This document shows, in pieces, positions 12,622 to 62,907 of a DNA stretch of 64,000 nt. The number at the start of each line of letters is the position of its first letter. Positions within the stretch are counted from its first letter, which is position 1. The notes beneath the pieces are model-generated. The model searched no databases and was not told the DNA's origin. It saw only the letters and a list, made by a program, of their open reading frames with translations. Both the position numbers and the translations under genes were made by a program. Source of the DNA: Clostridia bacterium (GTDB lineage Bacteria; Bacillota; Clostridia; Oscillospirales; CAG-382); contig JAFQHW010000010.1 of assembly GCA_017397805.1 (NCBI GenBank), forward strand, positions 2,069 to 66,068. Reading direction: 5' to 3'.

Positions 12622-12688
12622 AAGACTTGCGCCTCCCTTTATGGTTTGAGATAAGTTTTTGCAAAATTCTACAATTTTATGCACAAAA

Positions 12689-13019
12689 AATCCCAAGTGC
12701 TCGTTTTGAACACTTGGGATTTCAGACCGCTGACAAAGGCACAGAACACGAAAAAGAAAAAATACTACTATTTTAAGGTAGAAAATTCAGGGGAAATCCC
12801 TGAATTTTCTGCTTTTTATTATAGTTTTTCGTTCAAAACGAACCTCGGCTCACAGTACCGTTCGGGGTCCCCGTTACGAACGAAGTGAGTAATGGGGTGG
12901 CATAACAGCTATCGCCTCGGTTCGTCTTGTCTGCACTCTTTCTCAGCACTCTGCCAAGCTGATGACAAACTTTGTCATCAGCTTGAAATCCCAAGTGTTC
13001 GTTTTGAACACTTGGGATT
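12689..13019. repeat. MITE-like non-coding element, copy 1 (core 12723-12986) bracketed by two copies of a 33-bp terminator hairpin
   Basis: The hairpin aatcccaagtg(c/t)tcgttttgaacacttgggatt occurs at 12689-12721 and 12987-13019. The core is about 95% identical to 61412-61636 in its left 40 bp and right roughly 115 bp. No reading frame is conserved. Confidence 0.75.
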
Positions 13020-13035
13020 TTTGAATTGTTATATC

Positions 13036-58404: not shown

Positions 58405-61373
<2,969 letters not shown>

Positions 61374-61389
61374 TCCATAAAAAAGCAAA

Positions 61390-61658
61390 AACTGCAGTTC
61401 ACACTGCAGTTCAGACCACTGACAAAGGCACAGAGCACGAAAAAGAAAACAAACAAATATAATGAAGTAGAAAAATAAGGGGGCAAGCCTCCTTATTTTT
61501 CTGCATTTTGTTATATTTTTTCGTTCAAAACGAACCTCGGCTTGCAGTACTCAGTACAGCTATCGCCTCGGTTCGTCTTGTCTGCGCTCTTTCTCAGCAC
61601 TCTGCCAAGCTGATGACAAGGCTTGTCATCAGCTTGAACTGCAGTTCACACTGCAGTT
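61390..61658. repeat. MITE-like non-coding element, copy 2 (core 61412-61636) bracketed by two copies of a 22-bp terminator hairpin
   Basis: aactgcagttcacactgcagtt occurs at 61390-61411 and 61637-61658, perfectly identical. The core is homologous to 12723-12986. Confidence 0.75.
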
Positions 61659-61673
61659 TTTTATCTTTACTTT

Positions 61674-62837
61674 TTAATACTTCACGGCATCTAAAATCAA
61701 AGCCGCTTCTCTTTTGGTAAGGGTTTCGGAGGAATTTTCAAACCAAGCACTGCTTATGGCAAGGCTTCCTTCGTCCCCCGTGGCACGCTCTGCCATCACC
61801 AAGGCATCCTCTAATTTAATGCTCTCGTTGGGACGGAAGGAGTCGCTTTCGGCTTTAACTATCCCGTTGGTTACCGCCGCCTCCAGATACAGCCGCTTGC
61901 CGCGGCTTTGGCTTGCGGTGTCCGTAAAGACGTTGGAGGGATACAGCTTGTCCTCCACCTTTATCCCCGCGGCGCTTACCAGCATTACCGCAAAGTCGAT
62001 GCGGCTAACCTCCTCCGCGGGGGAGAAATAGTAGCTGTCGCCGATAAGTCTGTAGCTCATAACTTGGTCTTCGGACATACGAATCGCCGCCAAGTGCTCC
62101 TGCTCACCCACCATATCCGCAAAATATATGCCGCCGTCGTTCTCGGCAACGCTTACGGTGGCTTTGGCAAGCTCGCTTTTTTCGCCCCAATCGTTTACTG
62201 CGTAGTAGGTAAAGCTATCCTCACCGCAAAATCCCGTTTTGGGGGTATAGGTTACCGTATCGTCATTCAGGCTTATTCTGCCGCCCGTGGGGTATTGCTC
62301 TATAACGTACTCCAAGTCATCCCCGTCGGGGTCGTAGGCGCCAAGGGCGGCGGTAACGCTTACGTTTTTGTAGGTTTTAAGGGTTGCGGATACGGCAATG
62401 GGCGCAAAGCGCGGTGTGGCGGAATAGCGTATCACGCAGGCAAGCTCCCGGCTTTCCTTGCCGTTTTTCGTTACCGTAAAGCTAAAGCTGCAGTTGTCTG
62501 CAAATTCCTGTGAGGGCAAAAAGCTAAGCAGCTCCACCCCCGCGGCGGAAAGTGTTTGGTCGGGTATGGCATCTACCCCCGCCACCTTTAAAACACCGCA
62601 ACCGATAGGGGGTAGCGATTTTAGGGTTAGGTAGTCAAACTCGGTGCCCACCAGCTCCATCACCTCGCCGCAGTTAAAGTTTACGCGCTCGCCGCCCACA
62701 CTGCACTTTATAAGCCGCGTTTCGTTGCTTATAACCTCCAAGGCAGGGGAAAGCTGTGCCGCTTCTGCCTTCACGGCGGTAACGGTAACCGCAATCAGGC
62801 AAAGGGAAAACACGATCAAACGGAATAATTTTCTCAT
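61674..62837 (-). CDS. Secreted protein with cadherin/Ig-like repeat and two SLH-like domains
   Basis: Start MRKLFRLIVFSLCL (GGAGG RBS). YDPDGDDLEYV...TVTYTPKTGFCGEDSFTYYAVND is a cadherin-like repeat. The C-terminal YFADMVG...FSPAEEVSRIDFAVML and VFTDTAS...FRPNESIKLEDALVM are SLH-like. Confidence 0.65.
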   Translation of the reverse strand: MRKLFRLIVFSLCLIAVTVTAVKAEAAQLSPALEVISNETRLIKCSVGGERVNFNCGEVMELVGTEFDYLTLKSLPPIGCGVLKVAGVDAIPDQTLSAAGVELLSFLPSQEFADNCSFSFTVTKNGKESRELACVIRYSATPRFAPIAVSATLKTYKNVSVTAALGAYDPDGDDLEYVIEQYPTGGRISLNDDTVTYTPKTGFCGEDSFTYYAVNDWGEKSELAKATVSVAENDGGIYFADMVGEQEHLAAIRMSEDQVMSYRLIGDSYYFSPAEEVSRIDFAVMLVSAAGIKVEDKLYPSNVFTDTASQSRGKRLYLEAAVTNGIVKAESDSFRPNESIKLEDALVMAERATGDEGSLAISSAWFENSSETLTKREAALILDAVKY

Positions 62838-62907
62838 AACAACGCCTCCTTTTGTGGTATAGTTTGCCACGGCGACTCAGCTTTTATACCAAATATTTCA
62901 AATATAC

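Follow-up and report, generated by a model that had tools for sequence, protein, structure and literature searches.

The window analysed here, a 64,000-nucleotide stretch of contig JAFQHW010000010.1 from a Clostridia bacterium of the order Oscillospirales (assembly GCA_017397805.1), contains two copies of a short repeated element. The second copy lies between two convergent genes, tgt (60237-61373, + strand) and an open reading frame on the opposite strand (61674-62870, - strand). An earlier note, made from the sequence alone, had described this copy as a repeated element bracketed by a perfect 22-bp duplication. The sequence agrees with that description, and all of the coordinates the note gave for both copies are correct. 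The 22-mer aactgcagttcacactgcagtt occurs as a perfect duplicate at 61390-61411 and 61637-61658. The left copy retains the upstream A-run and has lost the T-run, which is retained at the right copy. The features of the two copies are as follows.

61390-61411, unstranded: duplicated target on the left side of copy 2, a 22-bp terminator hairpin (aactgcagt-tcac-actgcagtt)
61412-61636, + strand: MITE copy 2, short form, 225 bp, from CAGACC to CAGCTTG
61412-61428, + strand: left terminal repeat CAGACCACTGACAAAGG, identical at 17 of 17 bases to the TIRs of full-length IS1182-family elements
61469-61502, unstranded: internal hairpin 1, composed of an A-tract, a variable GC-rich stem and a T-tract
61530-61576, unstranded: near-invariant stem ACGAACC-TC-GGC / GCC-TC-GGTTCGT around a small GTAC hairpin
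61581-61604, - strand: internal second inverted repeat, reverse complement CAGAGTGCTGAGAAAG, identical to the left end at 13 of 16 bases
61606-61636, unstranded: right terminal palindrome CAAGCTGATGACAA-GGC-TTGTCATCAGCTTG, with a 14-bp stem in which pairs 3-5 covary
61637-61658, unstranded: duplicated target on the right side of copy 2
12688-12722, unstranded: duplicated 35-bp hairpin on the left side of copy 1
12723-12985, + strand: MITE copy 1, long form, 263 bp
12859-12908, + strand: nested hairpin module that converts the short form to the long form
12986-13020, unstranded: duplicated 35-bp hairpin on the right side of copy 1, mismatched at one position to its left counterpart

When aligned, the two copies share 81% column identity. 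Relative to copy 2, copy 1 has a block of 41 additional nt in the loop closed by the ACGAACC/GGTTCGT stem, the arms of which are located at 61530-61541 and 61565-61576 in copy 2 and at 12838-12849 and 12914-12925 in copy 1. The internal hairpin of copy 1 (12780-12810) has a stem unlike that of copy 2, with conserved A/T flanks. Across the family, the short form measures 223-230 bp and the long form 263-268 bp. The element consists of a core with inverted terminal repeats followed by a 31-nt terminal palindrome, an architecture indicated by the match of the internal inverted copy to the left end at 13 of 16 positions. In older, decayed members of the family the element ends at the internal repeat, and a hairpin duplication accompanies at least one such member as well. 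A coding role was considered and rejected. The sole long open frame, 40 codons in the conserved half, is broken by 1-nt indels among near-identical copies, and both the 1-nt and the 41-nt indels between close copies fall within it.

The block that distinguishes the long form consists of a nested hairpin module, CCCCGTTACGAACGAAGTGAGTAATGGGG, and its flanks, spanning ~30-50 nt with a 9-bp stem that includes one G-T pair. The module is found at two different internal positions of the MITE and is also present in congeners (L201/L203, G064). In the genome to which the window belongs, it is free-standing, in tandem and outside any MITE at C14:4720-4957, and further sites are located at C20:11132-11169 and C77:143-180. 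From its sequence and distribution, the module looks like a separate small repeat family.

This genome (1.72 Mb in 77 contigs) contains 48 BLAST matches of at least 100 nt to copy 2, of which 17 are full length. Pattern searches count 41 MITE-type left ends and 34 right palindromes, and the genome holds about 35-41 copies. Numerous half copies are truncated by a contig end at position ~139, the point where the short and long forms diverge, and about 28 of the MAG's 154 contig ends fall inside the repeat. Several contigs, in this MAG and in sister MAGs, carry unlike hairpins to the left and right of a copy; these are probably chimeras created by assembly through the repeat. All 12 congeners carry the family (80-86% identity), and no copy was found in a sample of 166 other genera from the order. 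In public records it occurs in uncultured MAGs from human, goat and sheep guts, under the labels Eubacteriales, Clostridia or Oscillospiraceae.

Each copy has its own locus-specific hairpin, which is repeated on both sides of the element. A duplication of 20-38 bp (median 26) was observed at all 20 sites in the genome at which both flanks are readable, six of which were reconstructed by pairing contig ends. The duplication is exactly symmetric about the dyad of the hairpin at 15 of these sites; it begins with A at 16 and finishes with T at 18. Where the A- and T-runs would lengthen the stem, the cuts sit 1-7 bp inside it, equally on either side. By crude ORF calls, 37 element ends adjoin the 3' ends of genes and 12 adjoin 5' ends, and the same calls revealed no orientation bias relative to genes (22 vs 15 ends). 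The element has fixed ends and lacks a conserved reading frame, and it is sited at the 3' ends of genes, always between two copies of a locus-specific hairpin. The recurrence of this pattern is well outside what chance would produce.

A pair of orthologous sites illustrates the insertion. In species G102, a single hairpin, gggctgttgcatattgcatcagcccc, lies downstream of a GHL10-family gene without any element. In species G064, the orthologous hairpin is present twice, as identical 29-bp sequences on either side of the MITE, and the outer flanks are orthologous as well. This comparison of an empty and a filled site is between species and not between strains. In same-species contigs from other samples, retrieved through exact matches to the Tgt and GHL10 proteins, the element occupies both window sites in every case, which gives no sign of recent movement at these two positions. 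A search of metagenome contigs with a 26-mer diagnostic of an empty copy 2 site gave no match. Synteny downstream of tgt is lost in the sister species, so that these provide no orthologous empty site for copy 2.

Three contigs of the same species from other samples (L177, L179 and L180) depart from the window sequence exactly at the tgt stop codon (61371-61373). A gene for a secreted protein begins 22 nt after that stop and replaces the terminator, the MITE and the convergent gene. By this comparison, the tgt stop codon is the boundary of a strain-variable region and not an empty site. Terminators after GHL10-family genes (L188-L193, L201-L203) hold this MITE in at least four species (G000, G064, G096 and G031), each with its own species-specific hairpin and all four with the element in the same orientation. 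These may represent repeated hits or an old insertion, the picture being blurred by paralogy. At one locus (L057, G031:C70:37488-37910), and also at L082, the stems of the flanking hairpins are identical and one loop is reverse-complemented (ggttt vs aaacc); judged from its sequence, one copy of the target duplication at L057 is flipped.

A full-length partner of the MITE was identified in a sister genome, G017. It is a 1597-bp IS that starts with CAGACCGCTGACAAAG, which is the left end of the MITE. Its other end, as the reverse complement, reads CAGATTACTGACAAAC, which is the second left-end variant of the MITE in the genome under study, where left ends come in CAGACC and CAGATTAC flavours. 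The ORF of this IS encodes a 492-residue protein that scores 457 bits to NF033551 and contains DUF772 and DDE_Tnp_1_6 domains. Both ends of the IS adjoin hairpins, and the hairpin at the left end on one contig reappears at a right end on another. An IS1182 transposase is present in 5-6 of the 12 congeners, and G017 has both IS and MITE copies. The transposase was not found in the assembly that contains the window (88.7% complete, smallest contig 2.6 kb); a 1.6-kb multicopy IS could be missing from it, since the assembly is incomplete and has no contigs under 2.5 kb.

Relatives of the G017 transposase are widespread in Clostridia and Paenibacillaceae. In complete genomes, full-length ISs of this group are flanked by perfect whole-hairpin repeats of 17-45 bp. 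All nine full-length copies in Clostridium carboxidivorans P7 have such repeats, which likewise occur in Clostridium sp. FAM 1755, Cohnella cholangitidis and Paenibacillus curdlanolyticus, and the two closest MAG relatives of the IS have whole-hairpin repeats of 27 and 33 bp. The same end sequence and the same insertion footprint are thus found with full-length ISs in the sister genome and in many Clostridia and Paenibacillaceae.

The similarity between the MITE and these ISs is confined to their ends. Between 15 and 17 terminal bases are exactly common to the MITE and ten IS relatives, at both ends in one of them (L096). The left end of the MITE agrees with IS ends at 16-17 of 17 bases; its outer right end agrees with the IS end consensus at only 9-11 of 16, with the pattern CA......TGACAA and the terminal-hairpin build common to both. 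In all 11 full-length ISs examined, the left end is a terminal palindrome followed by a T-run and the right end is a subterminal hairpin, with differing sequences. The right palindrome of the MITE is built like the left end of a full-length IS. A search of 92 IS loci with a profile of the MITE (nhmmer) detected no similarity past the terminal 17-25 bases, and an origin of the MITE as a simple deletion derivative of these ISs was rejected for this lack of interior similarity.

Two solo hairpins made of IS ends were noticed in the genome under study. One, of 47 nt (C62:54487-54533), consists of two inverted copies of the G017-type right end; the other, of 34 nt (C25:4593-4626), consists of two inverted copies of the IS terminal repeat. 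Both adjoin other hairpins and may represent either minimal elements or remnants of an IS that has been lost.

Taken on their ends and footprints, copies 1 and 2 are likely non-autonomous MITEs that are moved in trans by an IS1182-family DDE transposase.

The earlier note had emphasized differences between the two copies that preserve structure, including an internal hairpin with different stems and conserved flanks. We analyzed covariation in 48 distinct short-form copies from 13 genomes. Bases can pair in 98.8% of cells over these copies, compared to 35-45% with slid partners. Changes on both sides were observed at 16 pairs: 10 of the 13 pairs of internal hairpin 1, 4 of the 14 pairs of the right terminal palindrome, and 2 pairs of the small GTAC hairpin. 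Thus, the observation of the note extends to the family, in that two hairpins, the internal one and the right palindrome, keep their pairing through changes on both sides. The compensatory change it had placed at the apex of the terminal palindrome (caaaCtttg versus caagGcttg) is real for the hairpin, where three pairs near the foot covary, but not for the apex itself, which lies in a 3-nt loop and is mostly G..T. The ACGAACC/GGTTCGT stem and the long-range pairing between the left end and its internal copy are invariant across the 48 copies, and invariant stems are uninformative on selection for pairing. The note had located this stem and the extra block of copy 1 correctly, while the folding it proposed there gains no support from a stem that never varies.

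Hairpin 1 has the appearance of a terminator. Its A- and T-tracts are invariant around a freely changing GC-rich stem, and a terminator scan flags it in both copies in the window. After insertion, each duplicated target stem retains just 1-3 inner T's. Since insertion cuts the duplicated stems off from the inner T-run, hairpin 1 would provide a spare, and its sequence suggests that it probably acts as a built-in two-way terminator. The covariation of the right palindrome would reflect a family-wide feature of IS ends, because this palindrome has the build of an IS left end, and by analogy it is probably the end substrate of the transposase. These data support the conclusion that the folding, or at least the palindromy, of two hairpins is under constraint.

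The same compensatory pattern could arise without functional selection if palindromes correct themselves in DNA, by intrastrand template switching or hairpin-primed repair. Such self-correction fits the fact that the covarying hairpins are both near-perfect DNA palindromes, with a symmetry that in many copies also takes in the 3-nt loop of the right palindrome, and the target copies at L057, which differ by the flipped loop only, indicate that exchange within a palindrome does occur. However, intermediate G-T and A-C states are present in several lineages, as expected of stepwise mutation followed by compensation. Moreover, the tracts beside hairpin 1 are invariant, though palindromy alone does not need them, and the IS-end hairpin is kept across elements of unrelated sequence. 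We consider self-correction an unlikely source of the pattern.

The earlier note had also found the right half of the element compatible with a plus-strand small RNA of roughly 130-170 nt. Stated fully, the element would be or contain an sRNA gene that starts near 61520 and ends at the right hairpin and its T-run, and its structure would be maintained by selection on RNA folding. The covariation in two hairpins is genuine, and the right target hairpin with its T-run would terminate a plus-strand transcript. Both strands fold far beyond shuffled sequences (z about -10). However, no promoter-like site was found inside copy 1 or copy 2. The -10-like string TGtTATATt is present at 61508-61518, as the note described, but varies between species and is not conserved in the sister species. 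Comparison with Rfam, also suggested in the note, returned no family near threshold for the element (best matches ≤24 bits, against gathering scores ≥36). The stems that would make up the body of the RNA are invariant and lend it no support, and the orientation of copies is random relative to neighbouring genes.

The strand signals do not favour the plus strand either. Copy 2 folds at least as well on the minus strand (-100.7 kcal/mol, z -10.7) as on the plus strand (-90.5 kcal/mol, z -9.8), and the consensus fold has 77 pairs and -95 kcal/mol on the minus strand, compared to 56 pairs and -60 kcal/mol on the plus strand. On the minus strand, several pairs drift through G-U and not A-C, and the conserved CCGAGG...CCGAGG would give tandem G-A pairs, both of which would suit an RNA. 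Hairpin 1 and the right palindrome lean in the opposite direction. Base composition accounts for most of the energy gap between strands, as seen from the shuffles (-48.9 vs -55.0 kcal/mol). The G-T pair in the internal hairpin of copy 2, which the note had taken as a plus-sense signal, is a single inherited change, with G-T in nine copies of this genome and A-T in five, and is uninformative on strand. An assignment of strand by wobble pairs and folding energies was, thus, abandoned, the signals being contradictory and mostly compositional. IS end architecture and terminator shape explain the covarying hairpins. The note had itself set the ends of an IS-derived MITE family against its reading as an explanation of the palindromes, and such ends do account for the terminal palindrome and the left end. 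The analysis gave no indication of a small-RNA gene in the element, and we regard this reading as quite unlikely.

The IS1182 family (NF033551; DUF772 and DDE_Tnp_1_6), which includes IS1272 and TnSha1 of staphylococci, is the transposase family of the full-length partner of the MITE. Its members share with the MITE terminal repeats of ~16 bp and the use of stem-loops of any sequence as targets (PMC5678879). IS1272 replaces its target stem-loop and leaves no duplication (Wan et al. 2017, PMC5678879), whereas the MITE duplicates the whole stem-loop and has no gene. Duplication of a whole stem-loop is drawn in that paper only as a hypothetical 'pathway b' (Fig 13). MITEPye1 of Paracoccus yeei (PMC11578231) resembles the MITE in being small, ORF-less and intergenic, with IS1182-type terminal repeats and presumed movement in trans; however, it makes 4-bp direct repeats and is present in 1-3 copies per chromosome, compared to hairpin duplications of 20-38 bp and ~40 copies here.

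Elements outside this family behave similarly. YPAL/RU-2 of Yersinia (De Gregorio et al. 2006; PMC2229807) is non-coding and ~168 bp long, is co-transcribed with upstream genes, and makes duplications of 3-26 bp that span or adjoin dyad symmetries and vary in length, as those of the MITE do. It is unrelated to the MITE in sequence and host, has no known driver, and its duplications are often far shorter than the hairpin. IS1630 of Mycoplasma fermentans (IS30 family; Calcutt et al. 1999, J Bacteriol 181:7597, as cited in PMC2853133) is likewise described there as duplicating inverted repeats of variable length, but it is a full-length IS with a transposase of another family. That an IS30-type enzyme of this kind, for which targeting and duplication of inverted repeats of 19-26 bp are reported in the same citation, mobilises the MITE and that the match to IS1182 ends is coincidental is very improbable, given the 17 of 17 terminal bases shared with IS1182-type elements of the same footprint, the presence of both G017 end variants among MITE left ends, and the solo hairpin in this genome that is identical to the right end of the G017 IS. 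Hairpin-duplicating behaviour is, therefore, known in kind. In the literature searched, neither this MITE family nor its apparent link to an IS1182 clade has been described.

Targeting of hairpin shape with duplication of the whole hairpin is documented for very few elements, and for the IS1182 family the literature we found proposes it as no more than a model (Wan et al. 2017, PMC5678879). The present data provide a high-copy MITE, its likely driver, and full-length copies that show the same footprint in completely sequenced, cultured bacteria, which makes the duplication model directly testable in the laboratory. The repeat is also a source of fragmentation, and probably of chimeric contigs, in assemblies of gut Clostridia.

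Movement in trans by an IS1182-family transposase suggests the following pathway. The palindrome of a terminator would be extruded as a cruciform, or bound as a dyad. The element's two 3'-OH ends would then attack both strands at the 5' feet of the hairpins, which would be near each other in space and 20-45 bp apart along the duplex, and repair of the gaps would copy the whole hairpin onto both sides. Copies that retain hairpin 1 would be those that are tolerated or propagated.

Each insertion of the MITE rewires a terminator between genes. It is possible, though we hold it only tentatively, that the transposase of this IS1182 clade reads DNA shape at both partners, the terminal hairpin of the element and the extruded cruciform of the target, and that the MITE has evolved a two-way terminator to replace the one it splits. 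As a weaker addition to this idea, minus-strand read-through transcripts could form a long rod with tandem G-A pairs that host RNases could process. On this reading, the MITE would be a terminator parasite that insulates itself and could accumulate ~40 copies in a genome of 1.7 Mb with little cost.
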